Positions 19,924 to 36,835 of a stretch of 64,000 bases of DNA are shown one piece after another. The stretch lies in NCBI GenBank assembly GCA_937912225.1, contig CALDOJ010000034.1, forward strand, positions 556 through 64,555, in the 5' to 3' direction. How positions within the stretch are numbered: position 1 is the first letter of the stretch; each line of letters opens with the position of its first letter. The notes under the pieces are model-generated. The model saw only the letters and a program-made list of their open reading frames with translations. It had not been told where the DNA came from and searched no databases. The stretch comes from Candidatus Woesearchaeota archaeon (GTDB taxonomy: Archaea; Nanobdellota; Nanobdellia; Woesearchaeales; GCA-2686295). The position numbers were made by a program, and so were the translations under genes.

Positions 19924-20694
19924 ATGAGTTTACTAGGTAATTATGAAATCATAAAAGAAATCGCCGAAGGAGGTTTTAGTAGAATATTCCAAGGCAGACA
20001 TACAATTCTTAACGAGTATGCTTGTCTTAAACAAAATAAAGAAGCAACAAAAGATGATGTTGCTTTACTAGAGCTTGAAGCTAAACTTTTATGGAACCTT
20101 TCAGAACATCATTCTATTCCTTCAACAAAAGATTTTTTCAGACTTGGAAAACATAATTGTGTTATGGTGATGGATTATATTGAAGGTAAAACTATCGATC
20201 AAACTATTCCAGATGGCTCCCAAATGCATCCTGAAGAAGCTTGTTGGATTACTGAGCGATTACTCGGAGCATTATATTATGTTCATTATAATGGTGTTAT
20301 TCATTCAGATATTAAACCTCAAAATGTAATTATCGAACCAAAAAAACACGATATTAAACTAATAGATTTTGGACTTGCAACATTCAAACCAACTAGTGGT
20401 TCTAGACCTGTTGGTTACACAGCACAATATGCTGCCCCCGAAGTTTTAGATATGAAACCACCAATTCCTGAAAGTGATTTATATGGTGCAGGCATCATCA
20501 TGTTATATGCGCTAGGTGGAGATATTCCAACAAAATCTTTTCCAAAAAATACTCCAAAACCAATAGTTGAATTTTGCAATCCATTACTCAGATATGATCC
20601 TAAAGATAGACCTAATTGGGATAAAATAAATTTAATTGAAGAGCTGTCAGACGTTAGATACGAGGTTTTCGGAAGAAGACATTGTTCTGAATAA
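19924..20694 (+). CDS. Ser/Thr protein kinase (Hanks-type)
   Basis: Gly-rich loop region (EGGFSRIFQG), catalytic loop HSDIKPQNVII, DFG (IDFGLA) and APE (YAAPEV). Confidence 0.85.
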   Translation: MSLLGNYEIIKEIAEGGFSRIFQGRHTILNEYACLKQNKEATKDDVALLELEAKLLWNLSEHHSIPSTKDFFRLGKHNCVMVMDYIEGKTIDQTIPDGSQMHPEEACWITERLLGALYYVHYNGVIHSDIKPQNVIIEPKKHDIKLIDFGLATFKPTSGSRPVGYTAQYAAPEVLDMKPPIPESDLYGAGIIMLYALGGDIPTKSFPKNTPKPIVEFCNPLLRYDPKDRPNWDKINLIEELSDVRYEVFGRRHCSE

Positions 20695-20760
20695 AAAACG
20701 TATGACTGAGATTTGAGCTAGCGATAGCTCTACAATAAAAAACTAGTAGGAGGAGATAAA

Positions 20761-21759
20761 ATGTACGGATGGGGTTCAGACACCACCAGTTGGAAAGGAC
20801 CTAAGAAATACGAGTATGATTCTGCAAGGAGTCCATACTTGGATAAATTAGGATCTTCTTCCAAAGCAAAAGGTCCGAGAAGTTATATGTCTCGAAGTTC
20901 ACCAGATATGGATTTGGTAAACCCTCGAGGCAAAAATATTACCAGCGATAGTGAAAACCCTATTATTTTAGGTGTTGATGTGACTGGTTCTATGGCTACT
21001 TGGCCGGCAGAGATTTTTGATAGGTTGCCATTGTTCTACCAAACACTTTCCCAGTATCGGAAAGATGTAGAAATTAGTTTTGCAGCCATCGGAGACGCAT
21101 ACTGCGATAGTTACCCAATACAAGTTACGGATTTCACAAAGGAACTGGACTTGGAAAAAAAGCTAAATGCTTTATGCCCTGAAGGAGGCGGCGGAGGACA
21201 AGTTAGCGAGACTTACGAATTATTTGGACATTTTCTGTTAAATCATTGTGAGACTCCAAATGCTAAAACTCCATTCTTATTTTTATTTGGAGATGAAAAG
21301 TTCTACGACACCGTGAATCCAGATCAAATAGAACATTATATTGGTGATAAAGTGCAATCTGCACCTAATTCTAATGAGGTTTGGAAAGGGCTAATGCAAA
21401 AGTTCAATGTTTACTTGTTACATAAACCATACGGTTATGGTGATAGTTCAAGTGTTGACAAAGAAGTAGTTGATCATTGGGCTAAAGCAATTGGTAGACA
21501 ACGAATAATTGAGCTTCCTAGCAAGGAAAGAGCTGTTGATATTGCAATGGGAATTGTTGCAAAGCACTGGGGTAAATTCTCTGATTTTGGAGATAACTTG
21601 AGTGCAAGACAAGATTCTAGTTCTTCAGCTCCAGTGTATGATTCATTGAGGATGATAGATGACCCTTCAACGTCAAATCATTCTGTAGTGACGAGAAAAG
21701 CTAGTGGAGACAAAACTACATCATTAAGCGAAATGTTTGATGATGCTAAAAAACCATGA
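20761..21759 (+). CDS. vWA-domain protein
   Basis: MIDAS DVTGSM, a second MIDAS element (GGGGGQVSETY), and FLFGDE. The C-terminus is Ser-rich. Strong RBS (aggagg). Confidence 0.7.
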   Translation: MYGWGSDTTSWKGPKKYEYDSARSPYLDKLGSSSKAKGPRSYMSRSSPDMDLVNPRGKNITSDSENPIILGVDVTGSMATWPAEIFDRLPLFYQTLSQYRKDVEISFAAIGDAYCDSYPIQVTDFTKELDLEKKLNALCPEGGGGGQVSETYELFGHFLLNHCETPNAKTPFLFLFGDEKFYDTVNPDQIEHYIGDKVQSAPNSNEVWKGLMQKFNVYLLHKPYGYGDSSSVDKEVVDHWAKAIGRQRIIELPSKERAVDIAMGIVAKHWGKFSDFGDNLSARQDSSSSAPVYDSLRMIDDPSTSNHSVVTRKASGDKTTSLSEMFDDAKKP

Positions 21760-21825
21760 AGATGTTCAAAAAAATATTTTCAGGGTGCCAGAAAAATAAA
21801 GTTTTTCTGAGCATAAGTGAGGTAA

Positions 21826-22188
21826 ATGAAAATGGGAGATGAAATTGCAGATAGGGTTGCAGAAGCAAATTATTCCATAGTTACAACTACTAGAGCCAAA
21901 TATTTTGGAGAAGTAGTGCCTAATGGTGGAAAAGGAATAACTATAAATTCTGCGTATGAAGTGCAAGGTGAAAAAGAACCGCAGGCAGTTGCAATGGGTT
22001 TTATTAGAGGCAAACTCTATGGCGAAAACAAGAAAATCGAATTATCGGATGCTCTTGTTGAGTCCGTAACAGATGCTTTAGATGAGACTCGAATTTTGAA
22101 GACTTATGAAGCATTGCTACCTGAAGCAGAGAAACGAGCTCTTGGAATTATGACTTTCAAAGCGCTTGAAGACTTGCTTTCGAAATAA
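21826..22188 (+). CDS. Hypothetical protein (120 aa)
   Basis: ORF preceded by RBS gaggtaaatg. No family recognised. Confidence 0.45.
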   Translation: MKMGDEIADRVAEANYSIVTTTRAKYFGEVVPNGGKGITINSAYEVQGEKEPQAVAMGFIRGKLYGENKKIELSDALVESVTDALDETRILKTYEALLPEAEKRALGIMTFKALEDLLSK

Positions 22189-22226
22189 TTTTTTGAGGGG
22201 CTTTTCGCCCTTCTTTTTATTTTAAA

Positions 22227-23207
22227 ATGAAACTGAACATATTTAAAAAGGAAAACAAAGGTGAACTAAAAATGAAACATATAACAACAAAGATTTTAAC
22301 TAAACCTAAAGCAATAGTTACAATACCTCCATACGCTCCTTTCATCCACGAAGTATTACAGCACGAAGCTGTTTCTGGAATTAGATTAAATACTGTTATG
22401 CCAATTACTGAACCTTTAGAAGATGTTGTTGATAGATTAAATTCTGAAGCTTTAAGATATGGTAAAGAATTATGGGTTGATTTAAAATGTCGACAGTTAA
22501 GAGTTAAAACTTATGGCGTCCCCCCATTTACAGAAATCGAACTAACTCACAATATTAATGTTCGAACTCCTATTACCGCTTATTTTTCTGATGGTAAAGA
22601 ATCTGCCACTGTTTTAAGAGTTGATAAGAATCGATTAATAATGCAAGAAGGTCCTGGTAGAGTTGTTGGGCCTGGCGAATCAGTTAATATTCCTGATTAC
22701 TCTTTGCGTATTGAAGGTTTCTTTACGAATACTGATAAAGCCTATATTGAAGCTGGCAAACAAATTGGTTTTCATAATTATATGCTTTCATTTATTGAAG
22801 ATAAAAATGATAAATCTGAACTGTTAAAGCTTGACCCTAAGGCAATAATCGTTGAAAAAATTGAATCATTGAGAGGAATGGATTATGTTGTTAATGATTG
22901 GGATGGCTCAACAAATTTAATGACTGCAAGAGGAGATTTATATTTAGAATTAAAAATGCCTCATAAAATTGTTCAAGCTCAAGAAACCGTTATTAAAAAA
23001 AATCCTGCTGCGATTGTTGCATCAAGAATATTTAGTTCACTTGCTTATAATCTTGAACCTAGTTGTGAAGATATTGGCGATGTTGAAAACTTGTTAAGAA
23101 CAGGTTACAAAACTTTGATGTTTGGCGACGATATTTGTATGAAGCGAGAATCAATTATTAGTGGTTTAAATTTGTTTGAAACTATGAGTCGGAGGTATGA
23201 GAGATAA
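22227..23207 (+). CDS. Hypothetical protein (326 aa)
   Basis: Long ORF in an operon context. The N-terminal KAIVTIPP...GIRLN...VDLKCRQLR very weakly resembles the N-terminal strand of a PK/HpcH-type TIM barrel. Not assignable. Confidence 0.5.
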   Translation: MKLNIFKKENKGELKMKHITTKILTKPKAIVTIPPYAPFIHEVLQHEAVSGIRLNTVMPITEPLEDVVDRLNSEALRYGKELWVDLKCRQLRVKTYGVPPFTEIELTHNINVRTPITAYFSDGKESATVLRVDKNRLIMQEGPGRVVGPGESVNIPDYSLRIEGFFTNTDKAYIEAGKQIGFHNYMLSFIEDKNDKSELLKLDPKAIIVEKIESLRGMDYVVNDWDGSTNLMTARGDLYLELKMPHKIVQAQETVIKKNPAAIVASRIFSSLAYNLEPSCEDIGDVENLLRTGYKTLMFGDDICMKRESIISGLNLFETMSRRYER

Positions 23208-23209
23208 AA

Positions 23210-24268
23210 ATGGTTTACAAAAAAGATCAATACATCGGAACTTTACTTGGTTGTGCTATTGGAGATTCTCTTGGCATGCCTGTAGAGACTTGGAAGCCTG
23301 AACAAATTCGAAAGTATCATGGTAGAATTGAACGTCTTGTTGCACCAATCCCTCCCACTGATAAAGATGGTAAAGTTGTTTCTAAAGATGAGTATGGGAA
23401 GATTCGTCCAATTAGAGATTTTAAGAAAGGAGAATACACTGATGATACTATCCTAACTCTTGCTTTAGCCGAATCAATTATTGAAATGAAAGGTTTAGAT
23501 TTAAATCATATTGCAAAAACTCAATTAGAAGCTTTTCAAGCTAGAAGACAAAATGGCGGTTTTGGTTGGACTACTAAGACTGCTTTTGAAAAATTAGAAC
23601 AAAGTGAAAGTCCTTTAACAACTGGTTTACATGAAGGAATTGGTAATGCTCCTCCTATGAAAATGTCTCCAATTGGTTTGTACATGGATTCAACTGGTGA
23701 TGTTGATGGAGGCATTGAATATGCAAGACGAATTTCAGAAATGAGCCATCTTGATCCACGAGCAGTTGCTGCAGGTATTTTGCAAGCACGAATGATCTAT
23801 GAATTACTACAAGATAATTATACATCTCAATATAGCGATAAATTTATGGAGAAAATCATGAATCAAGTTAAAGAACATGAATTAAAATTAACTAGCAAAA
23901 ATAGTTTTATTGAAGAAGGAAGACTTCAAGATAAATTACAATGGATTAATTCTCATAAATATGCGCCCGATGCTGAAGCTTATGAAATTCTTGGTAATTC
24001 TAGTAAATCTCACGAATCTTATCCTTTCACAATTTTCATGTTTCAAAAGTATTGGAACGAACCAATAACCGGGTTGTTAGAAACTATTAATTACGGAGGA
24101 GATTGTGATACAACTGGTGCAATGTTTGGAGCTCTTGCTGGTGCAAAGCATGGAATGTTTTTCTCCAAAGATTGGATTCGTGATTTAAAAGATTCGGATA
24201 CAATTATTGAAGTGGCAGACAAATTTTACAACACAAAATTATATAAAGTTTTGAGGTTTCCAAAATGA
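23210..24268 (+). CDS. ADP-ribosylglycohydrolase family protein (ARH/DraG-like)
   Basis: N-terminal signature LGCAIGDSLGMPVE and C-terminal GGDCDTTGAMFGALAGAKHG. These are the two metal-binding motifs of the ARH family. Confidence 0.85.
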   Translation: MVYKKDQYIGTLLGCAIGDSLGMPVETWKPEQIRKYHGRIERLVAPIPPTDKDGKVVSKDEYGKIRPIRDFKKGEYTDDTILTLALAESIIEMKGLDLNHIAKTQLEAFQARRQNGGFGWTTKTAFEKLEQSESPLTTGLHEGIGNAPPMKMSPIGLYMDSTGDVDGGIEYARRISEMSHLDPRAVAAGILQARMIYELLQDNYTSQYSDKFMEKIMNQVKEHELKLTSKNSFIEEGRLQDKLQWINSHKYAPDAEAYEILGNSSKSHESYPFTIFMFQKYWNEPITGLLETINYGGDCDTTGAMFGALAGAKHGMFFSKDWIRDLKDSDTIIEVADKFYNTKLYKVLRFPK

Positions 24269-25278
24269 TGCCTATGAATAATAACAGCAGAATTCTGATC
24301 ATATCAAAAACTACTGAATTAGAAGCATATGAAATGATACATGGTGCAACTGTAGAAGAATATCTTGAAAGAACTAATAAAAACATTTTAGATCTTGAAC
24401 GAAGAAGAGATAGACATAATGAAAGTTTAGAAATGATTAGAGATGCTTTTGAAAGCAGAGGCGTAAGACCCGCAGTTTTTAGAAATCAAAGTATTACTAA
24501 AAGAGATTTACAACAAGACTGGGATTTCATTATACCTGTTGGTGGTGATGGAACTTACATGGACGCTGCAAGATATATTCTTGATGATACACCTTTATTT
24601 GGAATTAAATCAAATCCTTATTCTGCAGGAGGACATTATAACACTCATTTTTCAAATGCAGAAGAACATATTGCAAGATTATTTTCTGGCGATTTTAGTT
24701 TGGAACAAAGAACGCGTATTGAAGGTCGAGTAAAAAATGGTTATAACATTGTTGATTTAGCTTTAAACGAAATCATGGTGGGCGATAAAAATACTGCTGG
24801 TTTTGCAAAAGCAGACATACATATTAATGGCGAAGTTTATAGGACTGGTTCTTCAGGTGTTGTTGTTGCAACCTATAAAGGTTCTACTGGGTGGGCATAT
24901 AAAATACCAATCATAGAAGCAGATAATGAGCGACTTAATCCTATCAAAGAAGCTTTAAGAACTGCAGGATTAGAAGACGAAGCTAATAAAATTAGAATTG
25001 TTTCTGAAGATGCAGAATTTAAAGATGGAGAAGAAAATATTATAAGATATAAAGTTCGCGAAACAGGTCATGAAGGCTCAGGCATCGGTCATGATTATGG
25101 AATTTTAAAACCAGGAGAAGAAATGACAATTGTTTCTAAAATGTTTTCAGGCGGTAGTGCTATTTTTGACGGAAATAAAGAAACCATGTCAAGACACAGA
25201 GTTTATGACTTGCCTCTAAGTTCTGAAATAAAAATAAGAATTTCTGATAAACCATTATATGTTGTGCAGTTTGATTAG
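24265..25278 (+). CDS. NAD kinase homolog with a ~90-aa N-terminal extension
   Basis: GGDGT (IIPVGGDGTYMDAARY), NE motif (ALNEIMVGDK) and ATYKGSTGWAY, which resembles the TPTGSTAY substrate loop. Its start overlaps the ARH stop (ATGA). Confidence 0.75.
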   Translation: MMPMNNNSRILIISKTTELEAYEMIHGATVEEYLERTNKNILDLERRRDRHNESLEMIRDAFESRGVRPAVFRNQSITKRDLQQDWDFIIPVGGDGTYMDAARYILDDTPLFGIKSNPYSAGGHYNTHFSNAEEHIARLFSGDFSLEQRTRIEGRVKNGYNIVDLALNEIMVGDKNTAGFAKADIHINGEVYRTGSSGVVVATYKGSTGWAYKIPIIEADNERLNPIKEALRTAGLEDEANKIRIVSEDAEFKDGEENIIRYKVRETGHEGSGIGHDYGILKPGEEMTIVSKMFSGGSAIFDGNKETMSRHRVYDLPLSSEIKIRISDKPLYVVQFD

Positions 25279-25292: not shown

Positions 25293-26678
25293 TCATTTTA
25301 GAATTGTAAAATCAATATCTGCTTTTTCACAAAAGTCGTGGTGGTTTTTATATAACCAAGTATTAACATTATTATTCTGTTGATTATTAAATAAAATATT
25401 AGAAGTAACTTCTCTTAGCATATCAACTTTTTCTTGGTCGTCTGCGTTTTCAAATTGACTTATGAATTTTGTTGTACTATGATAATTTCTTAATGATTCG
25501 TTCCAAGATAATCTTGGCTGTAATTCATGTATAATTGCATCATCAGTTGATGGATAAACCATGAACTCTGCTAGTTCAGGACTTAAATTTGCAACATATT
25601 GTCTTCTTACATCTGAATTAAGAACTCTTTCAAAATAATTTTTTGATTTGTCTAAGTTGTTTAATAAAGTTTTAAACTCCAGATGATTGCCATTATTAGA
25701 ATCTGCTCCTGCTCTAACTGCTGTTTCATATAATTCATTTAAATTCTTTATTCTTCGTTCTAGAATTGAAGGACTTGCATCATAAAATCCTAAATCGACA
25801 AGTTCGATTAAAGTTTTTTGATGTTCGTTCCCATTAAGAACTTCAAGCTCTTTAGGACTTGCATCAACAAATGGATTCATTCCGAAATAAACAACTGCGT
25901 TCTTTGCTTTTTTTGTTGAATATAAATAAAATAAAGTACTATCTTCAGTTCTTATAACACAAGAATTTGTTGAAGCTGAAAACACTTTTGTATCTGGAAC
26001 TTCATACCTTGATAATGAACCAAGCTTTTTTCGTAGTTTCATTGCTTTAGTTGCTAAATCACTAATTTTACTCGGGTTTAATAACGCATTTTTAGGATTG
26101 GATTTTAATTGTTCTAATAACTCAGTAATTTCTAAGAATTTATCAACTGTTCCTAAAGGAGTGTCTAAGACCATTGATAAATCATAAGCTCCTGTTTTAA
26201 ATTTTTCAGGAAATAAATGTGCTTCAGTTAAATCAAGATTTCCTCTTTTACTAGTAACTGTTCCAACTAAACCTTCATGGATTCCAAAATCTCTAATTAA
26301 TGTTTCACCGCTAGTATAAACATTTTCTATTAAAGGATTTAAATATGATCGAGTACTTGAAATGTGATCTGACATTAACTGTCGTAAAGATAAAAAAATA
26401 ACTTTATTTTCTTTATCAGAATAATCAAATCCGCCTGAAATATCAATTGCTTTTGGCAAATTAGCATCAACTTTTACGTCTAAAATATCTGCTAAATGTT
26501 GTTTCTCATCTCCTTTAACAGAATAAAGAGAAGGCAGTTTTACTGTTAAAGATTTCTGTGGTAATAATGATGAGAATTCTAAAAAATCTTGCTCTAGCTG
26601 ATTAGTATGCATTCCATCGCTGCCTTCAGCTATGGTTTTTAATCGCTGTAATCGCATAAGATCTTTTAATCCTTTCAT
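25293..26678 (-). CDS. Hypothetical protein (461 aa). Last gene of the minus-strand supercluster.
   Basis: Long non-repetitive ORF with a 10-nt gap to the upstream gene. No recognisable family. Confidence 0.6.
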   Translation of the reverse strand: MKGLKDLMRLQRLKTIAEGSDGMHTNQLEQDFLEFSSLLPQKSLTVKLPSLYSVKGDEKQHLADILDVKVDANLPKAIDISGGFDYSDKENKVIFLSLRQLMSDHISSTRSYLNPLIENVYTSGETLIRDFGIHEGLVGTVTSKRGNLDLTEAHLFPEKFKTGAYDLSMVLDTPLGTVDKFLEITELLEQLKSNPKNALLNPSKISDLATKAMKLRKKLGSLSRYEVPDTKVFSASTNSCVIRTEDSTLFYLYSTKKAKNAVVYFGMNPFVDASPKELEVLNGNEHQKTLIELVDLGFYDASPSILERRIKNLNELYETAVRAGADSNNGNHLEFKTLLNNLDKSKNYFERVLNSDVRRQYVANLSPELAEFMVYPSTDDAIIHELQPRLSWNESLRNYHSTTKFISQFENADDQEKVDMLREVTSNILFNNQQNNNVNTWLYKNHHDFCEKADIDFTILK

Positions 26679-26688
26679 GTTTATCTAC

Positions 26689-28431
26689 CTATTTTGATCT
26701 TTTTCCATCTTTTTCAAGATTTTTCAAGAATCTTGTACTAGCATCATTAATTCTTGCTTCTTGAGATGCAGCAGTGATTTCAGTTCTTGTTTGAATATAA
26801 TCATCAAATTTTCCAAGAACAATCTTATAAGTTATATTTTTCAATTGTTCATTTCGATAAGCCATATGTTTATCAAAAGTTGCACCTATTAAAGTATCTG
26901 GAAGATCATAATCACTTCCTAATGATCTTAATACGTGACCAACTTCACGATTGCTTAAAGGAGAATCTAATATGTATTGTCCTATCTCAGCCCATTGTTT
27001 ATCTTTAATTGGAATTTCATCACTTCCTTTAGTAATTGTTCTTCGTGCTAATTCTGCAAAGTCAGTCGGGTCATCAAATCTTTTCATTTCAACAATTTCA
27101 TCAAATAATCTGCTTTGAGTAGCATCATCAATTCCTTCAATATAATTAGCATCCATGATTGACATGAACTTTCCGTTTTTTGGAATCATAGTTCCATCAA
27201 ACATTTTAAAGTAAATTCCTAAAGTGTTCTTCTGTTCAGCTGATAAATTAGGGTCATTTCTTGACTGAAAAATTGTATCTGCATCAGCCACATACATAAC
27301 AACTGCTCCAGGGAATGCTTTAATTTGTTCGCCTAATGCAGCCAATTTATTAGATGTTTGATTTTGATAATGAGATGCGTAATCAGTAATACTGTGTGTC
27401 ATAACCCATAAAGGTAAATTATTTTGTCTACAAAGATCTGCAAAAGACCTTAAGTAACCATGAGAAATAAAAGTTTTCCCACTTCCAGGTCCACCAAATG
27501 TGAATATTGTAGATGCTGGTTTATGAGGATTCATTTGTTTTTCTTGGTCATATGCAGATAATTTTTTCATATTCTCCCAAATAACAGATCCTAATTTTGG
27601 AGAACCGTCAAGATAAGTTCCCTCCCCACCTATTACATCTTCTTTTGTTATTGGCATAATTTTATCATCAATAACTACTTGATTGAACTTTCGACTAAAA
27701 TCGTCTTTTGTTATTGAAAAATTACCATATCGAAGTTTTAAATCACTAACTTTATTTTTAGCAGCTATATCTTCAAAAGATTCCCAACTAAACTGATTTA
27801 CCCACGAAGTAAATACTGCTTGTAATGTGTTTTTTAAATTGTCATCAGTTACTTCTTTTCCTTTATTCTGTTGTTGAGTAATAACTCTTGTCAAATCTTC
27901 TGTTGTCATAGTTGTTAATACAGAAGTTAAAGCATCTCGTTCTTTACTCGTTTCATATCTTGTTCCAAAAGCAAAAGTTTTGTCTATATCTGCTTTGTTT
28001 GTTCCTAATAATGCTAATCCAACATGACCAGCAAAGTTTAAAGCATATCTATTTGAAAAAAGTATTGCATCACTTGTTTGTTTTTCTAATTCATAAGTTG
28101 CTTTAGAAGCACTTTTAGATTGTGTTTCTCTAGCTTCAACAAATCCTTTTTGCGAATCTAATCTTCTTTCAAGTGTTATAACATCCATATCTTTTCTTAA
28201 TTCTAAAGCCGCAGCTCTAAAAACACCAACTGATTTTTCAAATACTTCTAAATAATTTATTTGATCAACAGTGTTTCTTGTACCATTTGATAAAGAGTCG
28301 ACAACTAAAGAATAAAGAGTATTTTCTTTTAGTAATCTTTGAGCAGGTTTTCTAACTCCACTAATTAATTCTTTAACATGATCTTGTTCCGAGATAATTT
28401 TTTCATTTAAATCAATTTCATTATTACTCAT
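26689..28431 (-). CDS. Protein with a C-terminal classical AAA ATPase domain and a novel ~270-aa N-terminal region
   Basis: Walker A FTFGGPGSGKTF, Walker B VVMYVADAD, and IMDANYIEGIDDATQSRLFDEI, which resembles the sensor-1/Arg-finger region of classical AAA proteins. Confidence 0.7.
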   Translation of the reverse strand: MSNNEIDLNEKIISEQDHVKELISGVRKPAQRLLKENTLYSLVVDSLSNGTRNTVDQINYLEVFEKSVGVFRAAALELRKDMDVITLERRLDSQKGFVEARETQSKSASKATYELEKQTSDAILFSNRYALNFAGHVGLALLGTNKADIDKTFAFGTRYETSKERDALTSVLTTMTTEDLTRVITQQQNKGKEVTDDNLKNTLQAVFTSWVNQFSWESFEDIAAKNKVSDLKLRYGNFSITKDDFSRKFNQVVIDDKIMPITKEDVIGGEGTYLDGSPKLGSVIWENMKKLSAYDQEKQMNPHKPASTIFTFGGPGSGKTFISHGYLRSFADLCRQNNLPLWVMTHSITDYASHYQNQTSNKLAALGEQIKAFPGAVVMYVADADTIFQSRNDPNLSAEQKNTLGIYFKMFDGTMIPKNGKFMSIMDANYIEGIDDATQSRLFDEIVEMKRFDDPTDFAELARRTITKGSDEIPIKDKQWAEIGQYILDSPLSNREVGHVLRSLGSDYDLPDTLIGATFDKHMAYRNEQLKNITYKIVLGKFDDYIQTRTEITAASQEARINDASTRFLKNLEKDGKRSK

Positions 28432-28433
28432 TT

Positions 28434-29567
28434 TTATACCTCTATAATTCTTATTTGTGTTCCTAACACTGAATCAGCCACTCTTGAAGAATATTTTGCA
28501 GGAGTTATAATCATTTCATCTCTCCAGTCTTCTCGATATATGACTTGTGCTAGTTCTTTTCCTTTTGTTTTATGATTAGGAGCGTAAGTGTATTGTCTTG
28601 AAAATCTTAAAAATCCTGCTTCCGGGTCTTCTTCTAATAATTCTTTTGTTATTGGTAATTGTGGAATTTCATTCGATCCTGTTTGATATTTTGTTTCAAA
28701 AGGACCTATTAAGGATTTTGATACATGAACTGGATGTAAACTTTCAAAGCCTTCATCTATTTTTTTTAAAACATACCATGCAGCTAAACTATCAGAATTA
28801 AATTTTAGTGCAGATCTTAACTGATTAGTTAATTGATATTCACCATTACTATCTTTTTCAATATGTGTTTCTCTAATATCCTGCCATAAATCTATAGTGT
28901 ATGCTTGAAACATTCCAGATGCTAATGAATAATTTACGAACGAGATATTAAATTGAGTTTCTCCAGCGAATGATTTTAATTTTGTAATTGTAGGTTTCAA
29001 ATCACTTGACTCCCAACCTAATAGAGTTGCATCTTTTAGTTGTTCAAGATAATTTATTCTCATAGCTTGTTTATGAATATCTTCAGCTACTCCGCCCACA
29101 TTTCCAATTTCAACATCATCTTGTAATAATAATCTGTCAAGATTTTGAGCTAATTTTGTAAAAGAAGGTAATTTTTTTAGTTTGTCTGGTGCAGATTTTT
29201 TTAGTTTGTTTAAAGCTATAAAATCGAATTGCCAAGGTAAACCTGACGAAGCGTTTATGTTTGCTTCTTCAAAATACCCTTTATTCTTTGAAGGATCATC
29301 TTTAGAAGTTTGCCAATCTAACCATTGATATTCTTCTCTTACAGTTTGAACCATGTTTGAAAGAGTTTTATAAGTGTTAGTAAACTTTGGTAACCTTTGC
29401 CAATCCCAATCTTTTCTTTTTGCAAAGTCTTCCATAGTTTTGAAATGATCAGCTTCTTTTTCAAAAACTAAATTTTGAGCTAATACGCCTAGAAATTTAT
29501 CTATTTGACTCAAGTAACGTGATTGTTCATCTCCTATTAATTTATGTTCTCTCACAACTCTTGTCAT
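28434..29567 (-). CDS. Hypothetical protein (377 aa)
   Basis: Long ORF with an aggtataaaaatg RBS. Trp-rich. No family. Confidence 0.6.
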   Translation of the reverse strand: MTRVVREHKLIGDEQSRYLSQIDKFLGVLAQNLVFEKEADHFKTMEDFAKRKDWDWQRLPKFTNTYKTLSNMVQTVREEYQWLDWQTSKDDPSKNKGYFEEANINASSGLPWQFDFIALNKLKKSAPDKLKKLPSFTKLAQNLDRLLLQDDVEIGNVGGVAEDIHKQAMRINYLEQLKDATLLGWESSDLKPTITKLKSFAGETQFNISFVNYSLASGMFQAYTIDLWQDIRETHIEKDSNGEYQLTNQLRSALKFNSDSLAAWYVLKKIDEGFESLHPVHVSKSLIGPFETKYQTGSNEIPQLPITKELLEEDPEAGFLRFSRQYTYAPNHKTKGKELAQVIYREDWRDEMIITPAKYSSRVADSVLGTQIRIIEV

Positions 29568-29595
29568 TTTTGCACCTCTTTAAAAATAAATTTAA

Positions 29596-29626
29596 AAAAT
29601 GCTCAGCAGATAATCTGCTGGCATGC
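29596..29626 (-). terminator. Candidate intra-operon terminator or attenuator: a hairpin followed by a T-tract on the minus strand
   Basis: The minus strand reads gccagcagattatctgctgagcattttttaaatttattttt. This is a 6-bp stem (cagcag/ctgctg), a 5-nt loop and a T-run. It lies between the stop of 29667..30896 and the start of 28434..29567. Confidence 0.3.
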
Positions 29627-29666
29627 TCAAAACTAAAAATTTCTGAGCAAAAAATAAAAAATAACT

Positions 29667-30896
29667 TCACTGATGCGTTGCATAGTGAGGTTGTTCTGGA
29701 ATAGCAGATAATCTTTGCTGGTTCTCTGCCCATTCCATCTTTTGATTGTTAAGGTCTTTCATAAAGCCTTGAACTTGTTGAGTTACAGCTTCTGCTTTAT
29801 CAACATCATAGATAGGAGTTTTTAATAAATCAAAAACCTCTGCAGCTAAATGCGTAGTTAAATGTGCATTAGCTTCCATTAACTGTTGTGATTTAGCAGC
29901 AACTTCTACTAAAGTCTTTTTAATATCTAAAGCAGCAACACCGGCTGAAGCAATCTTTCCTTGTATTTTAAATACAGGAACCATATCTTCCATTGCGTGT
30001 TTATATTTAATTTCAAGTTCGCTCATTGAGTCTATCAAAGCATTGATAGCTACATAGTTTGCTTTTGAAGCAGCTGCAGCTCCTTTTGCTGATTGAACTC
30101 CTTCTGCCGAGTCTAATATTTCTCTTCTAATACTAGAAACTACTCCATCTGCAGATAATTTTCCATCCAGAACTCCATATTTCATGTCTAAGACTTGAGT
30201 CATTTCACTTGTCAATCTGTCTACAGATTTCAAATCACTTGATTCTTTTGCTACTTGTATTTGACTTTCATAATCAACAAGAACTGTTTCAATATCTTTT
30301 AGTTCTGTTTGTAATTTCTCAACTTCACTCTTTGCTTGTTCCATATCAGAAGAAGTATATAATCCATTTTTCAGACTATCAATTAATTTTTGATCAAGAG
30401 ATTTCATATGAGCAACATTTTCAACTTGCATTGATTCTGCATTTGCTCTTCCATCAATTGCGTTTTGATATTGGTCTCCTAAGACTTCAGCTATACGATC
30501 AACCATGTATTCTAATGCATCTCCTTTTTTTCCAGCTGCATCAATTTTCATTTGTCTAGCTTTTCCTTTTCGTCCAATAAATTCATTGAATTTAATTCTA
30601 ATACCTTCTCCAGTAGTATATAATTTCTTTGAACCAATTAATGTTTGAAAATTAACATTTAATTTTCCATATGTTTCTGCTAATTCAACCATATCTAGTT
30701 GTAAAGCAGCCATTTCTTTGTGAATAGCACCAGTACTTGTTTGTGTTGAAGAAGGCACTTTACCTAATCTTTTTTTGTCCATTTCTAGTGTTTCTTCTGA
30801 TGCGTCAAACGCTTCATACACTTCTTCTTTAGAAGTTGATTTTTCAACTTTATATTTATCAGTTAGTTCTTCCAATTTTGTTTTTTGTTCACTCAT
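29667..30896 (-). CDS. Long coiled-coil protein (409 aa), all alpha-helical. A TelA- or PspA-like architecture is possible but unproven.
   Basis: Heptad-rich sequence throughout. Strong RBS (aggaggaataaaatg). It has its own promoter-like region upstream. Confidence 0.6.
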   Translation of the reverse strand: MSEQKTKLEELTDKYKVEKSTSKEEVYEAFDASEETLEMDKKRLGKVPSSTQTSTGAIHKEMAALQLDMVELAETYGKLNVNFQTLIGSKKLYTTGEGIRIKFNEFIGRKGKARQMKIDAAGKKGDALEYMVDRIAEVLGDQYQNAIDGRANAESMQVENVAHMKSLDQKLIDSLKNGLYTSSDMEQAKSEVEKLQTELKDIETVLVDYESQIQVAKESSDLKSVDRLTSEMTQVLDMKYGVLDGKLSADGVVSSIRREILDSAEGVQSAKGAAAASKANYVAINALIDSMSELEIKYKHAMEDMVPVFKIQGKIASAGVAALDIKKTLVEVAAKSQQLMEANAHLTTHLAAEVFDLLKTPIYDVDKAEAVTQQVQGFMKDLNNQKMEWAENQQRLSAIPEQPHYATHQ

Positions 30897-30963
30897 TTTA
30901 TTCCTCCTAATATACTCTTTTTTTTATAAAATATCGAAAATATACTCTTTTTTATCACTGCGA

Positions 30964-30990
30964 AGTAGTTATTATATATAAATGTTTCTA
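30964..30990 (-). promoter_or_regulatory. Putative promoter of the 29667..30896 unit, with a TATA box, a BRE-like box and an inverted AGTAGTTA 8-mer
   Basis: The minus strand reads agaaacatttatatataataactacttcg. Two 14-bp direct repeats (aaaaaagagtatat) sit in the downstream 5' leader at about 30905-30960. Confidence 0.35.
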
Positions 30991-32421
30991 TTAAAAGTCT
31001 TTAATATCATATAAACCACCTATTGCACTGCCAACATCCCTGATCATACCGCCCGCGAATTGCCCGTTTGAAACAGGAACAACTTTAGTATCAGGTCCTG
31101 CAGCCATTCCAATTTCTTTAGTTATAGCCCGAGTACTTGAGTTTCCATCAATTAAAAACAATCTAAGCATGATTTCAGGACAATCTCGAAATTTAGAAGC
31201 TGAATTAATAGCTGCTTCAACAGAATCAGGCGCTCCATCACTAATTAAATAAGCAATAGAAGGACCTTTGCCTTGCAATACGTTAAACAACCAATCTAAA
31301 GCTAAATGAGTAGGTGTGCCACCATAAGGATGCACATTCTTCATCAAATCAGCAGTAGAAACAGGCCTAACTGAATCTTGACTATAAACAGATAAATAAA
31401 CATTATTCGAAGGATTTAATTGTCTCATCAAAGAATGATTAGCAAGAACAGTCTTTTGAGCCATAGAAAAACGATCACCCTCCATACTACCACTAAGATC
31501 AAGACTCATAGCAGTATCAATAGATACTTTAGTAGACTCAAAACTCTGCGATTTACCAACAATTAAATAAGGAAATTGAGGCTTTCTATAACCTCTTGTA
31601 CGAGAATAAATAGTAGATTGAACCCAATCAACATCAGATAATTCAGATAAATCTTCCATTTCATCCCAATGATCAACTACACCATCATAAGTTCTTTTTA
31701 AGTTTGACATGAACCCAGAATGACCGTCAGATGTCTCAATACCTTTAACAATTTCATCCAAAAAGATATCTTCTAAAGACTTCACAATTTGTTGCTCATC
31801 AAACTGCAGAACACCAGATTCATTAGATACATATTCAGAACTTTCAATAAAAGTTTTAAGTTTCTCTTTAGCAATTCTTGTAGCATCTGTTTTAATATTA
31901 ACTTCAGATTTTTGATCTTCCAGTTTAGATTCAATATCACCCTTCTTATTCTCAAATTCATCAGCAATGTTTCGAGTTTGTTCTTCTTTTTCAGTTATAC
32001 TCTGTTGATAAGCATCAGAAGCACCAACTAAATAATCATTAGCGCCACGCACAGCATCAGTATTATTAAGCAAAGTTTGTTCTGCTTGACTTAAAGCTAA
32101 AAGTTCATCTGTAAGATTAGCATCATAAACTTCTTGAATACTATCCCTAGTTTCAATTGCATAGGCTTCAATCATTTTATCAGTTTTTTTTGCATACCAA
32201 CCTTTGAAAACTTTTTTTCCAACAGCAAGTCTAAGACGAGCAGAACCAGATAAATCAAGAAAATCATGAACTATTTCACGAAAAACTGTTTCAGATTTAT
32301 AACGATTAGAAAAACGTTCAATAAACTCTTCTAATTGAGGAACTTGAGAAATACCACTAAAAGAACTAACAGGTTCTTGACCTTCATTCACAATTTCATC
32401 TATTTTATCTTCCATTTTCAA
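30991..32421 (-). CDS. Protein with a coiled-coil N-terminus and a C-terminal vWA domain
   Basis: MIDAS LDLSGSM, GGTPTHLALDW and ISDGAPD in the last ~190 aa. The N-terminal ~270 aa is a helical coiled coil. Confidence 0.75.
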   Translation of the reverse strand: MKMEDKIDEIVNEGQEPVSSFSGISQVPQLEEFIERFSNRYKSETVFREIVHDFLDLSGSARLRLAVGKKVFKGWYAKKTDKMIEAYAIETRDSIQEVYDANLTDELLALSQAEQTLLNNTDAVRGANDYLVGASDAYQQSITEKEEQTRNIADEFENKKGDIESKLEDQKSEVNIKTDATRIAKEKLKTFIESSEYVSNESGVLQFDEQQIVKSLEDIFLDEIVKGIETSDGHSGFMSNLKRTYDGVVDHWDEMEDLSELSDVDWVQSTIYSRTRGYRKPQFPYLIVGKSQSFESTKVSIDTAMSLDLSGSMEGDRFSMAQKTVLANHSLMRQLNPSNNVYLSVYSQDSVRPVSTADLMKNVHPYGGTPTHLALDWLFNVLQGKGPSIAYLISDGAPDSVEAAINSASKFRDCPEIMLRLFLIDGNSSTRAITKEIGMAAGPDTKVVPVSNGQFAGGMIRDVGSAIGGLYDIKDF

Positions 32422-33227
32422 AATAATTTATAATTAAGTACTTTCCAGACTTTTCTACCAAATCGATAAATAGGCCCGTCTTTTTGTTCAGTAGCAGTTT
32501 TTCGTTGCCAAAAATGTTTCTTCTCAACTAAAGTATCAAGAGTTTCACCTTCTAAAGGATCAATCTCCCCTTTAACAGTTGCAAGATCTAAAGCTCTTTG
32601 AATATTAGAACTCCCATAATAAGCAAAACTTTGATCTGCATAAGCAGGATCCATACTGGAAACATCAAGATGACTTACACGTTTCTTTCGTTTAGCTTTT
32701 TTCTTTTCAGGACCTGAATAACCATCTTGTAAAGCATCATTAATTCTCATAAGTTTTTCATAAGCTTCACGACCGCCAACTGCTTGTAATTTCTCTTCAA
32801 TTCTCGCCCTCATTTCATTAAGACGAGCTTGAGCAGCAGTATACGCTTTATTTGATGAATCAACTTTAGAATCGGCGTCTCTTTTAGCTCTTTCTTTATC
32901 AGCAACTTCTTTACCAAGAGTTTGTTCAATTTCAAAAAGAACTTGTTCTTTTTCAAATTCTTCTGCAGCAATAGCTTTTTTTTGTTGATAATCAAGCTTA
33001 TCAAGTGCAGCATCTTTTTGAAACTCAAGATTCTCAGCGATTTGTTCAGATAACTGTTCAATAATACTATAATCATTAAGAATCGCATCAACAGCATTTG
33101 TTGCAGAAGAGCCATTCTTCCAAGCATCAACCATTGCACGCTTAATAACTTCGTCTATATTAGAAAAATCAATAGGCGGAATACGAAATAATGCACAATC
33201 CGCTAACCTATAATCGCTAAGTCTCAT
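32418..33227 (-). CDS. Coiled-coil protein (269 aa) with a basic patch
   Basis: Helical with a KKKAKRKKR stretch. It overlaps the next gene by 4 bp. The Lys/Leu-rich ORF inside it in another frame is spurious. Confidence 0.55.
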   Translation of the reverse strand: MRLSDYRLADCALFRIPPIDFSNIDEVIKRAMVDAWKNGSSATNAVDAILNDYSIIEQLSEQIAENLEFQKDAALDKLDYQQKKAIAAEEFEKEQVLFEIEQTLGKEVADKERAKRDADSKVDSSNKAYTAAQARLNEMRARIEEKLQAVGGREAYEKLMRINDALQDGYSGPEKKKAKRKKRVSHLDVSSMDPAYADQSFAYYGSSNIQRALDLATVKGEIDPLEGETLDTLVEKKHFWQRKTATEQKDGPIYRFGRKVWKVLNYKLF

Positions 33228-33237: not shown

Positions 33238-35532
33238 TTACTTTTCTCCACCAATTTCACAACTAGTGTTCTCTCTGCTCTTCATAAAATACTCCATCGA
33301 TGTAATTAATTCAGAAACAGTTATTTCACCAAAGTTTGGTTGTTGTCTAAACAAGTAATCCATGAAAGGAAACATTATTTTTGCTTCTTGTTGTCTCTTT
33401 GAAGGATTCGGACTATAAGCCTGTTTAACTTGGTTAAAATTAGCAGTTGCAACTTCAACATTATTTTCATATGAATCTAATTCTTGAATTAAATTATCTT
33501 CAATTTCAGGAATTTGAGTCTTTGCAATAGCAACTTCTTTATAAGCTCTGCACCACCAAGTATCTTCTTCTCGATTCAAGACATCATTAAAATTGTTCTC
33601 AACCCATCCAATAAGTGCCTCTTTAGAACTAATATCCGCGTCACGAGTACTTTCTTGAACTCTAGAACAAAAAGCGAATTGAATACCAGAAATAGCATAT
33701 TCTGCAGTTGCAACTTCAGGAGCTTCTTCATAAAACAATTTATCAAGAGTTAATTGTGCTCTTGCAGCATCTAATGCATCAAACTTTGCACGATTACTTC
33801 CAGTTTCTTTTTGCTTTCCAGCACCAGTATATTCTGCTCTAAATTTTAAAAATAAAGCATCAACTGCTCGTTCAATAATTACAGGCATTTGAACCTTTCT
33901 AATTGATAACTCACCATTATCTCTGTGCGTATCTCCAACGTCATAAGATTCAACTTCATTTGCTTCTTTATGATAACCTTTTCTAGTAATACTATAACTA
34001 GTATCTTCATCTGTTGGATAACGAATAGCCATAAGAGCCATTCGATCATTCAAAGGACCAGTAAACACAGTATGATCATTCGCAGTTCCAATTATTAAAG
34101 CATCCGCAGGATATTCAAATCTTAATTGATCAGGTTTAATAGTTTCATCTTCAAGCGCTTTTAACATGCTACTATAAGCTTGAGGTCTTAACTTATCCAT
34201 CTCATCAAAAAATGCAATGCCATTATTTGTTCTTACAAGCAAACCTGCATGAAATCCTTCAGGATCGAAGTCACTTTCTCGTTTACCAGTTGTAGTACCA
34301 TCAAGTTTAGGAGTTTTATAACCTGCCAAATCCATTCGTTTTAAACCTTCAGTTCCTTCTGAACTTTCAATACCCATACCTTTACCATACTTTGCAACTT
34401 TGACTTTTACATCTTTAGCAGCAGGTTTTTTGAAAAAACCAGTATCTTTAAAATTAGGGTCGTAAGAAATTTTACATTCAGGACAAGCATCAATTATTTT
34501 TGAAAAGTCCTCATCAAAAAGACTATAAGGATTACATTGTGCTTGACAACCATCAACAATGAAAATAACTTCTTGTTGTTGTGCAATATCAATAATATCT
34601 GCACTAATTTGCGATTTTCCACCACCCGGAGGACCATAGAAAACAAAGTCTTTTCCAAGTAATAAAGCCTTTACAACTCTTTCGGCTCTTTTTGTACTAA
34701 TAACAGTTTTTGGAAAGAATTCGCCAAGAACATATCTTTTAATTTCTTCTTCTTTATCAGCAGGAACTATTTGTCCTAAACTAGAAGCTTGAATATCTTC
34801 ATAATGACCATTAATTCCTAATTTAAAGTTAGTTCTTCTTCCTTGTTTAGCAATAGGTTCATCAAACTCGACATCTATTGTATTACGAGAAGGCACATAA
34901 TGTTTAAGCATAGCAGTTGCTCCCGCCTCAATTTTAATTCCACCACTAATTCGTTCAGAATTAGAATCCCAAACACTTGATGCATCAAATCCTTTTTTAA
35001 ATCTGATCTTATGTCCAAGTTTTTTATCAGCAACAACTTCATCATCAAGAGAATAACCAACAGTTATAGTTCTCTTTCCAGGAAATAGTTTTAAATTATT
35101 CAAAGGAACATATAATCCATGTTCATCATTAAGAGCACCATTCAAATTATTAGCACCTTCAAATCCTTTATTAAATTCAATTCCAACTAAAGGTACTCCT
35201 CTAGTAGTTATTGGCGTTTTAATAACTCCCTTCATACCAGCTATAGGTCGCCCTTCATAATTAGACATTGCTTCAACTTTCATTCCTTCTTGAGCATACT
35301 TCATTATTTCCTCAGCACCAGTTACTAATGGAGGAACTTTTTCAGTTATACTGTTGAATGCAGAATTCCATTTTCCAAGCATTTCATCATTTATTTGCGG
35401 TACAATTGTTTTGAGAATTGACTCTAATCTTCTACGAGTGATTAAAGCGAGATGTGTTGAAGAAGTTTTTGGAACAACTCCTAAATTTACTAAATCTTTT
35501 CCTGTTTTGACCTTAAGGTAATCTTCAAGCAT
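33238..35532 (-). CDS. AAA+ ATPase of the ChlI/MCM/ComM-like clade. A Cys4 zinc-ribbon insertion lies between Walker A and Walker B.
   Basis: Walker A FYGPPGGGKSQ, CQAQCNPY...CPECK insertion, Walker B IAFFDEMDKL, sensor-1 IIGTAN and Arg-finger-like LNDRMALMAIRY. RBS ggaggcg. A promoter sits upstream. Confidence 0.8.
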   Translation of the reverse strand: MLEDYLKVKTGKDLVNLGVVPKTSSTHLALITRRRLESILKTIVPQINDEMLGKWNSAFNSITEKVPPLVTGAEEIMKYAQEGMKVEAMSNYEGRPIAGMKGVIKTPITTRGVPLVGIEFNKGFEGANNLNGALNDEHGLYVPLNNLKLFPGKRTITVGYSLDDEVVADKKLGHKIRFKKGFDASSVWDSNSERISGGIKIEAGATAMLKHYVPSRNTIDVEFDEPIAKQGRRTNFKLGINGHYEDIQASSLGQIVPADKEEEIKRYVLGEFFPKTVISTKRAERVVKALLLGKDFVFYGPPGGGKSQISADIIDIAQQQEVIFIVDGCQAQCNPYSLFDEDFSKIIDACPECKISYDPNFKDTGFFKKPAAKDVKVKVAKYGKGMGIESSEGTEGLKRMDLAGYKTPKLDGTTTGKRESDFDPEGFHAGLLVRTNNGIAFFDEMDKLRPQAYSSMLKALEDETIKPDQLRFEYPADALIIGTANDHTVFTGPLNDRMALMAIRYPTDEDTSYSITRKGYHKEANEVESYDVGDTHRDNGELSIRKVQMPVIIERAVDALFLKFRAEYTGAGKQKETGSNRAKFDALDAARAQLTLDKLFYEEAPEVATAEYAISGIQFAFCSRVQESTRDADISSKEALIGWVENNFNDVLNREEDTWWCRAYKEVAIAKTQIPEIEDNLIQELDSYENNVEVATANFNQVKQAYSPNPSKRQQEAKIMFPFMDYLFRQQPNFGEITVSELITSMEYFMKSRENTSCEIGGEK

Positions 35533-35698: not shown

Positions 35699-36835
35699 TT
35701 AGAAATAATTCCTAATCATATCAGTAAAAGCCCTAGCAATATTATTCAACTGCCTTTTTTCAAACTTTGTTTCAGCAAGAGTTTGACCCTCTAAAGGTTT
35801 ATCAGAACCTACACCAGCAAAGAAATATCTTACTGCATCAACACCATCATAATGATTATGATAACTAGCCATAGGGCCCCATTCCATATCAATAGTTGTA
35901 GCACCAAGATCTCTTGCTTCTTCTAACACAACTCTTTTTTGTCTTAAGATTGATGCAGTATTCAAAGTCGAACCTTCATGAAATGAACCAACATATTTTT
36001 CAAGCATTTCCGTAGCTTTAGGATTAATTAATAATTGATTATTAATTGGATAAATTGTTTGTAAATTATCCTTCAATAATTTCTCATCCATAAATCCTGT
36101 TGGTACAAATACATCTCCAACATTAGCTTTTGAATCTAAAACTCCAACTTTACCATAATGAAAAATATTAACCCACGCACCCAATACTTCATTATTAGTT
36201 GCTAAACAAAATTGTTCTATAACATTCTTTGCCTGGTCAGCAAAAACATAATCAAAATTAACAGCAAAATATCCGCCCATGTCAAGCAATCTGTAATTCA
36301 AAAAATCATTTTTTATTTCATCAATTACTTCAATACCTTCATCTAATGGAAAATTATCAAACGGTCCAAAAATAACATTTAAAACACCATCATGAGTAAA
36401 CTCTTCAACATCCAATCTATCATAAGCCTCATTTACAAGTTCAAATGCTAAATCTCTAAATCTTGCACTTGCAAATTTTTGTTCGCCACCAAAATGTTTT
36501 ATATCCCAGTTTAGTTTTTGTTCTGTTGCTCTTCCTAAAATACCAAAATGATGCCTGATTCTATCATAACGTATATCGCCTTTAGTATTTATTACATGAA
36601 GCGTTCCTGTTGCTTCATCATAGAAATTGCTTTCAACAGAAGCAATTGGTTTAAACTTGAGAAAGCCCCCCATCTCAGGTTCTACTTCCTCTGGTTTAAA
36701 TCCATTATGAAGAACTAAATGTTCTAAGTTCTCAAGTTGTTTTGCCCTGATTGCCTCATCAGGATGCAGTTGTCTATCAACAGTATATTGCACTCTTTTT
36801 TCATCATCCATTAAATCTGTATATATATCAGTCAT
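35699..36835 (-). CDS. Phosphorylase-superfamily (PNP/MTAN-like) nucleosidase-domain protein with an N-terminal extension
   Basis: VGDVFVPTGFM (resembles GDVVV), ATTIDMEWGPMA (resembles the VEMEAAA catalytic-region motif) and FFAGVGSD (resembles RAISD), all in the C-terminal half. Confidence 0.65.
   Translation of the reverse strand: MTDIYTDLMDDEKRVQYTVDRQLHPDEAIRAKQLENLEHLVLHNGFKPEEVEPEMGGFLKFKPIASVESNFYDEATGTLHVINTKGDIRYDRIRHHFGILGRATEQKLNWDIKHFGGEQKFASARFRDLAFELVNEAYDRLDVEEFTHDGVLNVIFGPFDNFPLDEGIEVIDEIKNDFLNYRLLDMGGYFAVNFDYVFADQAKNVIEQFCLATNNEVLGAWVNIFHYGKVGVLDSKANVGDVFVPTGFMDEKLLKDNLQTIYPINNQLLINPKATEMLEKYVGSFHEGSTLNTASILRQKRVVLEEARDLGATTIDMEWGPMASYHNHYDGVDAVRYFFAGVGSDKPLEGQTLAETKFEKRQLNNIARAFTDMIRNYF

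Follow-up and report, generated by a model that had tools for sequence, protein, structure and literature searches.

We describe a cluster of seven genes that appears to encode a cytoplasmic system of a subset of the DPANN archaea (Woesearchaeota/Pacearchaeota). The cluster lies in a 64,000-nucleotide stretch of contig CALDOJ010000034.1 from a Candidatus Woesearchaeota archaeon (GenBank assembly GCA_937912225.1, contig positions 556 to 64,555). We call this 64-kb stretch the window, and all positions below are window coordinates. A first-pass annotation, made by a model from the DNA letters, had drawn attention to a "distal module" of four genes at 25293-30896, all on the minus strand. Comparison with other loci indicates that the unit is seven genes and that this module is its invariant half. 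As to function, there is a fair chance, if somewhat short of even, that the seven proteins make up a soluble, membrane-proximal machine for assembly or remodelling, or for envelope stress.

Conservation of the seven-gene unit

The four open reading frames (ORFs) match the annotation exactly, with lengths of 461, 580, 377, and 409 amino acids (aa) in order of coordinate. Read in the direction of transcription, the block begins with a 409-aa all-helical protein (29667..30896; ORF and AlphaFold model), in which a disordered N-terminus precedes long helical hairpins and the C-terminal third resembles TelA. It is followed by a 377-aa orphan protein with an alpha+beta fold (28434..29567; ORF and AlphaFold2 model), a 580-aa divergent ATPase of the classical AAA type (26689..28431; ORF, PF00004, and family profile), and, as the last gene, a 461-aa orphan (25293..26678; identified as an ORF, with orthologues directly after the AAA gene in 16 loci). 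Each of the four has full-length orthologues, at 30-55% identity and in constant order, in 15-17 other contigs, and all four are genuine genes.

A block of three genes lies upstream, also on the minus strand. It encodes a 764-aa AAA+ protein of the chelatase/MoxR type with an N-domain of ~280 aa (33238..35532; Pfam, PDB profile, and alignment), a 269-aa adaptor (32418..33227; alignment), and a 476-aa protein with a helical N-terminal half and a C-terminal von Willebrand factor A (vWA) domain whose metal ion-dependent adhesion site (MIDAS) is intact (30991..32421; alignment and Pfam). The adaptor gene overlaps the vWA gene by 4 nucleotides (nt). Within the blocks of the window, gaps and overlaps range from -4 to 10 nt; this spacing implies translational coupling, and we count it in favor of one system.

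We compared fourteen proteins of the window to 21 loci, fetched via homologues, using tblastn. The order 409-377-580-461 is identical in every complete locus, which makes the four genes one module. The three-gene block adjoins the four-gene block in 16 of the 17 informative loci: in 11 (window included) it is upstream on the same strand, in 4 it follows the four genes directly, with all seven arranged head to tail and spaced by -10 to +18 nt, and in 1 it is divergent. Locus L011 is without the three-gene block within 10 kb. Adjacency that is kept despite rearrangement is the signature of selection for linkage. We also clustered all ORFs from the 17 loci, and the seven families were the only conserved neighbours; the next ORF clusters were antisense shadows of the two ATPase genes. 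Because the seven families are the only conserved neighbours and the two blocks are so regularly adjacent, we take all seven genes as the unit.

This comparison also bears on the linkages that the first-pass annotation had suggested checking. Co-conservation with the upstream AAA+/vWA unit holds up, with nothing else conserved around the seven genes. A link to a kinase array further upstream does not, as the array is in none of the first 21 loci. Scattered, unlinked homologues, which the annotation had named as evidence that would count against a module, are contradicted by order and adjacency that persist across 30-55% divergence. In other genomes the neighbours are housekeeping genes (enolase, Rpr2, FtsZ, DNA ligase, EF-1alpha, and MutS).

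Two divergent members of the cluster carry extra genes. L037 has four small genes (335, 164, 165, and 189 aa) between the vWA and TelA-like genes (6032-8603 of that locus), and L038 has two (420 and 491 aa) upstream of the AAA+ gene (1664-4403).

We found 68 full-length homologues of the 580-aa protein (30-54% identity), and those with a named source are nearly all from Woesearchaeota, Pacearchaeota, or Nanoarchaeota. Homologues of the same kind number 42 for the 409-aa protein and 59 for the 377-aa protein. As estimated from pattern-based scans and cluster counts, the family is rare (~60 full-length clusters at 50% identity and 17 GTDB species representatives). An identical copy of the 409-aa protein was found on 20 contigs from aquatic metagenomes. 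A contig labelled as Candidatus Uhrbacteria, from the candidate phyla radiation (L020), carries at its end (10001-10855) the C-terminal half of an AAA orthologue with 54% identity to the 580-aa protein. This copy reflects either mis-binning or transfer between episymbiont lineages.

The cluster does not seem to have been named before. We found no description of it in the literature that we searched, and NCBIfam has no family for six of the seven proteins. We rejected a phage origin: a blastn search with the region gave no match in 50,697 phage records, and a scan of 2.9 million viral contigs turned up no relative of the 580-aa AAA protein. The only PHROGs match was to one P-loop family of unknown function. 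Nor is this a known anti-phage system, as PADLOC-DB 2.0 gave no significant match (only noise, with a best E of 1e-4 to 0.05 on generic P-loop stretches). Family-to-family comparisons ruled out paralogy among the seven families. By sequence, the components fall into superfamilies that are already known (TelA-like, classical AAA, and chelatase/MoxR AAA+ with vWA), and the combination matches nothing known.

The proteins and their expression signals

The first-pass annotation had described the 409-aa protein as all-helical and had guessed that it was of the TelA/PspA type. Its AlphaFold model is indeed almost wholly helical (helices at residues 127-177, 182-218, and 222-323), with moderate confidence (predicted local distance difference test, or pLDDT, of 60.8). 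In a Foldseek comparison of the model to the PDB, only generic coiled coils were matched; against BFVD, two phage "tellurite resistance" proteins appeared at ranks 10 and 35. Pfam gave nothing meaningful for the protein from the window (no TelA match at E <= 0.1), and a search of PDB sequences with the family profile likewise turned up nothing of note. The annotation had recommended this Pfam check, and for the 580-aa protein it returned AAA (PF00004) without MIT or Vps4_C.

Profile comparisons argue for the TelA part of the guess. The family profile retrieved only 81 proteins from 1.84 billion representatives, so that the family looks small and isolated, and among its weakest significant matches (E = 3.5e-5) is a bona fide TelA (Pfam PF05816, E = 1.8e-34) that itself matches klaB, yaaN, and "toxic anion resistance" genes from plasmids. 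Aligning the 409-aa family to this TelA with hhalign gave 95.5% (E = 1.5e-8, 194 columns, residues 192-390). When the family was compared to the bona fide TelA aligned with seven annotated bacterial TelA proteins, hhalign gave 81.5% (E = 1.1e-5) for residues 284-394, which are encoded at 29715..30047 on the minus strand and include a shared IP(V/I/L)(F/W)(K/R)xQ motif. Six controls (other helical or unrelated families, E. coli PspA included) scored 0.1-2.5%. In the reverse direction, we searched 811 ORFs with a TelA hidden Markov model. All of the top eleven matches fell within the 409-aa family: ten were full-length proteins and one was a partial extra copy in L011, and the matches that we inspected aligned to the same TelA region. 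(The partial copy, at 6580-7395 of L011, covers the C-terminal region of the protein and lies just upstream of the full gene.) We conclude that the 409-aa protein is remotely homologous to TelA over its C-terminal third to half.

The PspA part of the guess fails. Comparison to E. coli PspA with hhalign gave 0.3%, and neither PspA, Vipp1, nor ESCRT-III appeared in the PDB profile search at E <= 10 or among the top 50 fold matches. PspA_IM30 and Snf7 were also absent from the Pfam matches of the window's protein and from the 25 most frequent of 134 families across 40 members.

Like TelA/KlaB/YaaN/YceH (PF05816), the 409-aa protein has ~400 aa, is all-helical, and is soluble, and its C-terminal ~110-200 residues align to these proteins, including IP(x)(F/W)(K/R)xQ. 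Unlike them, it falls below the Pfam threshold and its N-terminal two thirds are unrelated. It is also archaeal, while TelA is bacterial or phage-borne, and the usual partners of TelA are missing from its conserved neighbourhood. We know of no description of TelA coupled to two ATPases. In 26 of 40 members, a variable linker leads to a [PA]H[YF] motif whose start is exactly 7 residues from the C-terminus; this tail looks like a docking peptide.

For the 580-aa protein, the annotation had proposed a classical AAA domain at the C-terminus, with GPGSGKT and a D-A-D Walker B, behind ~270 aa of novel sequence, and each of these features was located. Pfam places AAA (PF00004) at residues 312-448, with 29.2 bits against a cut-off of 21.2. 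PF00004 and the family profile together outline an AAA module at residues ~300-500 (26932-27534, minus strand), within which the Walker A sequence GGPGSGKT (27472..27495) and the D-A-D of Walker B (27277..27285) are evident in both the sequence and the alignment. The N-domain (residues 1-270; 27622-28431, minus strand) matched nothing, and the family profile found no PDB match inside residues 1-227, so it is novel at the level of sequence comparison. The 580-aa sequence on its own found nothing in the PDB. With the family profile, Cdc48/VAT, Afg2, Msp1, and katanin were found at E = 1e-8 to 1e-5.

The active site is unusual. Across 33 sequences, G313, P315, G316, G318, and K319 of Walker A are invariant (T320 is present in 32), as are D383, the sensor-1 asparagine N429, and the arginines R441 and R495. 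PF00004 above threshold, a Walker A of the form GxxGxGKT, the sensor-1 asparagine, and an arginine in the second region of homology (SRH) are shared with classical AAA proteins such as Cdc48/VAT, Afg2, Msp1/ATAD1, katanin, and Vps4. What is missing in all 33 sequences is the catalytic glutamate of the Walker B pattern hhhhDE: the residue after D383 is alanine in 32 and valine in one, and never glutamate. In established AAA enzymology, loss of this glutamate leaves ATP bound with little or no hydrolysis. This predicts that the 580-aa protein would bind ATP and hydrolyze little or none of it, unless D385 (present in 29 of 33) substitutes. Other differences from classical AAA proteins are that it has a single AAA module with a unique N-domain, that it lacks MIT, Vps4_C, and the Cdc48 N-domain, and that its conserved pore-loop region reads DYASHYQN instead of the usual aromatic-hydrophobic-Gly. 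Also, the invariant R495 lies in LSNRE, at a position where, by our reading, classical AAA proteins have alanine.

The annotation had likened this AAA domain to that of Vps4 or katanin in particular. We found no such affinity: Pfam does not match MIT or Vps4_C in the protein, Msp1 and katanin score no higher than Cdc48/VAT and Afg2, and the best 60 PDB matches of the family profile do not include Vps4. The SRH reads SRLFD, which we take to be closer to the RR(L/F) pattern of Msp1/katanin/Vps4 than to RPGRFD.

The 377-aa protein has a confident AlphaFold2 model (pLDDT of 93.8 and predicted template modelling score of 0.92, from 55 homologues) with an alpha+beta fold. Foldseek against the PDB gave a best E of 0.038, and the ten best-ranked hits had template modelling scores of at most 0.20. 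None of the 55 family members had a Pfam match, and the family profile had no sequence match in the PDB. The fold is apparently new. Invariant residues include D150, E203, D271, H278, and Q341, and H281 and E351 are nearly invariant. The 461-aa protein had no match in Pfam, NCBIfam, PADLOC, or PHROG, and its family profile found no sequence match in the PDB. The two orphans showed no relation to each other when compared, and direct comparison ruled out a relation of either to YceG.

In the three-gene block, the 764-aa protein exceeds the cut-offs of both Mg_chelatase (25.9 bits) and AAA_5 (23.1 bits). Nine of 11 family members match both, and the best PDB match is BchI/ChlI. In the 764-aa family, the stretch that separates Walker A from Walker B has four invariant cysteines (C329, C333, C350, and C353), which suggests a zinc-ribbon insert in the ATPase core. 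In the 476-aa protein, the MIDAS residues D308-x-S310-x-S312, T369, and D395 are invariant; VWA_2 matches 9 of 13 family members (best E = 2.4e-6), and vWA matches in the PDB are weak. (Residues 30-168 of this protein have a weak family-profile match to the amphiphysin BAR domain, 3sog, with E = 0.0067, which could reflect helical bias.) The N-terminal part of the 269-aa protein contains a conserved motif (ADCxLFRxPP); a coiled coil and a variable linker follow, and the protein ends in a conserved cationic amphipathic helix. The hydrophobic moment of this helix is 0.93 in the window's protein (best 12-mer) and 0.53-0.95 in orthologues. No transmembrane segments are predicted in any of the seven proteins.

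The pairing of a Mg_chelatase/AAA_5-type AAA+ protein with an adjacent vWA protein whose MIDAS (DxSxS...T...D) is intact is what defines the MoxR/chelatase and vWA pairs (BchI/BchD, NorQ/NorD, RavA/ViaA, and CbbQ/CbbO). The cluster's AAA+ protein differs from theirs in being far larger (764 aa), with its ~280-aa N-domain and four-Cys insert. A gene for a coiled-coil adaptor separates the two, and the client appears to be the TelA-like block.

The annotation had pointed to a promoter-like region of the module's own at ~30964-30990 and to an internal hairpin with a T-tract at ~29596-29626. A promoter is plausible, with motifs as the evidence. The 94-nt gap ahead of the 409-aa gene (30897..30990, read on the minus strand) contains two boxes that resemble archaeal TATA elements, TTTATATATAAT (30971-30982) and TTTATAAAAA (30921-30930), as well as GGAGG at 30903-30907. 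The exact 12-mer AAAGAGTATATT occurs in it twice, 30 nt apart (30909-30920 and 30939-30950), and has no other exact copies in the window; this pair may be a regulator site or may have arisen by chance in AT-rich DNA. (The window is ~31% GC.) Judging from gene coordinates, a gap of ~60-220 nt precedes the 409-aa gene in orthologous loci that have the vWA gene upstream. A sigma-70 scan showed no enrichment, but that consensus is bacterial and irrelevant to an archaeal host.

The hairpin is present too, in an attenuator- or terminator-like region between the 409-aa and 377-aa genes (29568..29666, minus strand; motifs and folding). This region holds a double oligo-T (29649-29664), two hairpins, and a T6 (29594-29599). 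The second stem-loop, CAGCAGA-TTA-TCTGCTG at 29604-29620, is followed by AGCATTTTTT. The 103 nt at 29568-29670 (the intergenic region plus the stop codon) fold better than every shuffle (z = -4.0). Conservation of the hairpins is ruled out, as they do not recur in orthologous loci. The T-tracts do recur: directly after the 409-aa stop codon there are at least two runs of T5-7 in the window and in 7 of 15 loci; another 3 loci have one run. Runs of T5-7 are the usual termination signal in archaea. The recurring oligo-T after the 409-aa gene would fit a subunit that is made in excess over its partners.

Proposed mechanism and alternatives

In the scheme that follows, we infer the oligomerisation, the membrane location, the binding partners, and the physiological role. 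The TelA-like 409-aa protein would be made in excess, from its own promoter and with an oligo-T terminator directly after its gene, and would oligomerise into an assembly at the membrane's inner face. The 580-aa AAA protein and its dedicated 377-aa and 461-aa partners would bind this assembly, possibly via the C-terminal PHYA tail. Because the catalytic glutamate is absent, the AAA protein would control assembly and disassembly either as an ATP-bound switch or as a very slow unfoldase. The amphipathic helix at the C-terminus of the 269-aa adaptor would recruit the chelatase/MoxR-type AAA+ and vWA-MIDAS proteins to the membrane, where a MIDAS contact would let them load, anchor, or remodel this same assembly in the manner of MoxR/vWA pairs acting on their clients. 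The physiological role may be to protect or reshape the cell membrane. There are precedents for both halves of this scheme: in Ter systems, TelA and a vWA protein were proposed to form sub-membrane structures (PMC7824862), and MoxR/vWA pairs are established remodelling chaperones (PMC9976466, PMC13036017). The first-pass annotation had read its module, together with the AAA+/vWA unit, as an accessory remodelling or stress module. The linkage in that reading is real and the function, a reasonable one, is an extrapolation from the genes.

Several points weigh against a membrane-proximal machine. The mechanism is extrapolated from the genes. The link to TelA is remote and covers no more than the C-terminal third to half of the 409-aa protein: TelA's Pfam gathering score (30 bits) is not reached, with weak matches in just 2 of 40 members (best E = 0.0059), and comparison to KlaB by itself with hhalign gives 2.7%. 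Because TelA's own mechanism lacks an explanation, this homology transfers little function. The usual partners of TelA (XpaC, KlaA/KlaC, TerD/TerC, and YceG) are not in the conserved neighbourhood, which consists of the seven families only. The 409-aa model is of low confidence and its fold matches are generic. Membrane association hangs solely on the predicted amphipathic helix, and two of the seven proteins are without an inferable role. Finally, the rarity of the system fits an accessory function better than a core one.

We also considered other functions. The seven genes could be a conflict system, anti-virus or inter-cellular, comparable to Ter/TelA or vWA-MoxR ternary systems, in which the ATPases and the vWA protein sense invasion and the 377-aa or 461-aa orphan is the effector. 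This is the less probable case, but one to be taken seriously. As in those systems, TelA-like, vWA, and AAA+ components occur together with a patchy distribution. TelA and vWA proteins are components of Ter, which has been implicated in resistance to phages and xenobiotics (PMC7824862), and vWA-MoxR conflict systems are known (PMC7159879). The family is small, its genomic context is variable, L037 and L038 have extra genes, and in the window the cluster sits beside an ADP-ribosylglycohydrolase, a NAD-kinase-like gene, kinases, and a kinase-like array. However, there was no PADLOC match beyond noise, we recognised no effector domain, the viral contigs that we scanned hold no copies, and the neighbours elsewhere are not defence islands. 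The strict gene order at 30-55% divergence also lacks the module shuffling that is typical of defence systems. We rejected identity with Ter itself: in the 17 loci, TerD, TerB, TerC, PRTase/HAD, and effector modules are not in the conserved neighbourhood (the rest of these genomes was not searched).

The maturation of an enzyme, by a cofactor-insertion chaperone set like BchI/BchD, CobS/CobT, or NorQ/NorD, would account for the chelatase-like AAA+ and vWA-MIDAS pair, since known pairs of this kind put metals into client enzymes (PMC9976466, PMC13036017). The matured enzyme would be the 377-aa protein, with its conserved D150, E203, D271, H278, H281, and E351. But the 377-aa gene travels with the other block, and the protein resembles no known metalloenzyme fold in the PDB (Foldseek). 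The TelA-like protein, the second AAA protein, and the amphipathic adaptor would also go unexplained, and we consider this function very unlikely. About as unlikely is a functional analogue of ESCRT-III/Vps4, in which the 409-aa protein polymerises on membranes and the AAA protein recognises its tail and disassembles the polymer, leading to scission, budding, or repair. In both ESCRT-III/Vps4 and PspA/PspF, as here, the gene for a helical protein is linked to a gene for an AAA-type ATPase, and there is a conserved C-terminal tail motif. The 580-aa protein belongs to the classical clade, with an SRLFD motif of presumably Msp1/katanin/Vps4 character, and in the 409-aa protein the spacing between the tail motif and the C-terminus is fixed, with a variable linker ahead of the motif. 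A substitute for ESCRT-III is also plausible, as a 2025 review finds ESCRT-III in all archaeal lineages except DPANN (PMC7619361). Against this, there is no detectable homology to ESCRT-III or PspA by any of the comparisons above (hhalign, PDB sequence matches, and the top 50 fold matches), and the ATPase is neither Vps4, lacking MIT and Vps4_C, nor a bacterial enhancer-binding protein of the PspF type. The absence of the catalytic glutamate in all homologues argues against a processive disassemblase. In L003, FtsZ is encoded near the cluster, so division needs no such system. That the four genes just happen to be neighbours, without a shared function, is barely credible: nothing speaks for it, and their order and adjacency are kept in every complete locus across 30-55% divergence.

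Returning to a membrane-proximal machine, a bolder version of it is that a TelA-like polymer under the control of two ATPases is a DPANN-specific machine for membrane remodelling, or a cytoskeletal one, in the role of ESCRT-III/Vps4. We think this improbable. If it were true, the machine might serve in membrane scission, in repair, or in building contacts to host cells, and TelA-family proteins in general would be polymer-forming remodellers of membranes.

A conserved cluster of 10 kb takes up ~1% of the coding capacity of DPANN genomes, which are ~1 Mb in size (1.07 and 1.36 Mb for the two longest contigs with the system), and it had no name. It ties the TelA family, whose mechanism is unexplained, to two ATPases and a vWA-MIDAS protein, which offers an experimental route into the function of TelA. 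For structural biology, it supplies a confidently modelled protein (377 aa) without a fold match in the PDB and a natural AAA protein without the catalytic glutamate. And if membranes are where the system acts, it is relevant to how DPANN cells, which according to the 2025 review are without ESCRT-III (PMC7619361), maintain or reshape their envelope.

Surrounding genes

The window contains no tRNA genes. Directly upstream of the 764-aa AAA+ gene is a gene for a 378-aa protein with matches to DUF6909 and PNP_UDP_1 (35699-36835, minus strand). On the other side, a run of plus-strand genes (19924-25278) converges on the module: it encodes a Ser/Thr protein kinase, two unknowns, a protein like the pyruvate kinase barrel, an ADP-ribosylglycohydrolase, and a NAD-kinase-like protein. 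This run could be a set for nucleotide or ADP-ribose signalling. The 378-aa gene and the last three of these converging genes are in none of the 21 loci.

The kinase-like array is a co-directional run of 9.7 kb (37071-46773, minus strand) with nine paralogous genes at 25-52% identity, whose products have weak matches to the catalytic loop of PI3_PI4_kinase. Three paralogous genes of 174-201 aa interrupt it at 41733-43352. Further away, at 13159-15258 on the plus strand, is a UvrD-type helicase with an N-terminal RQC and a C-terminal HRDC, that is, a UvrD core with RecQ-like decoration.

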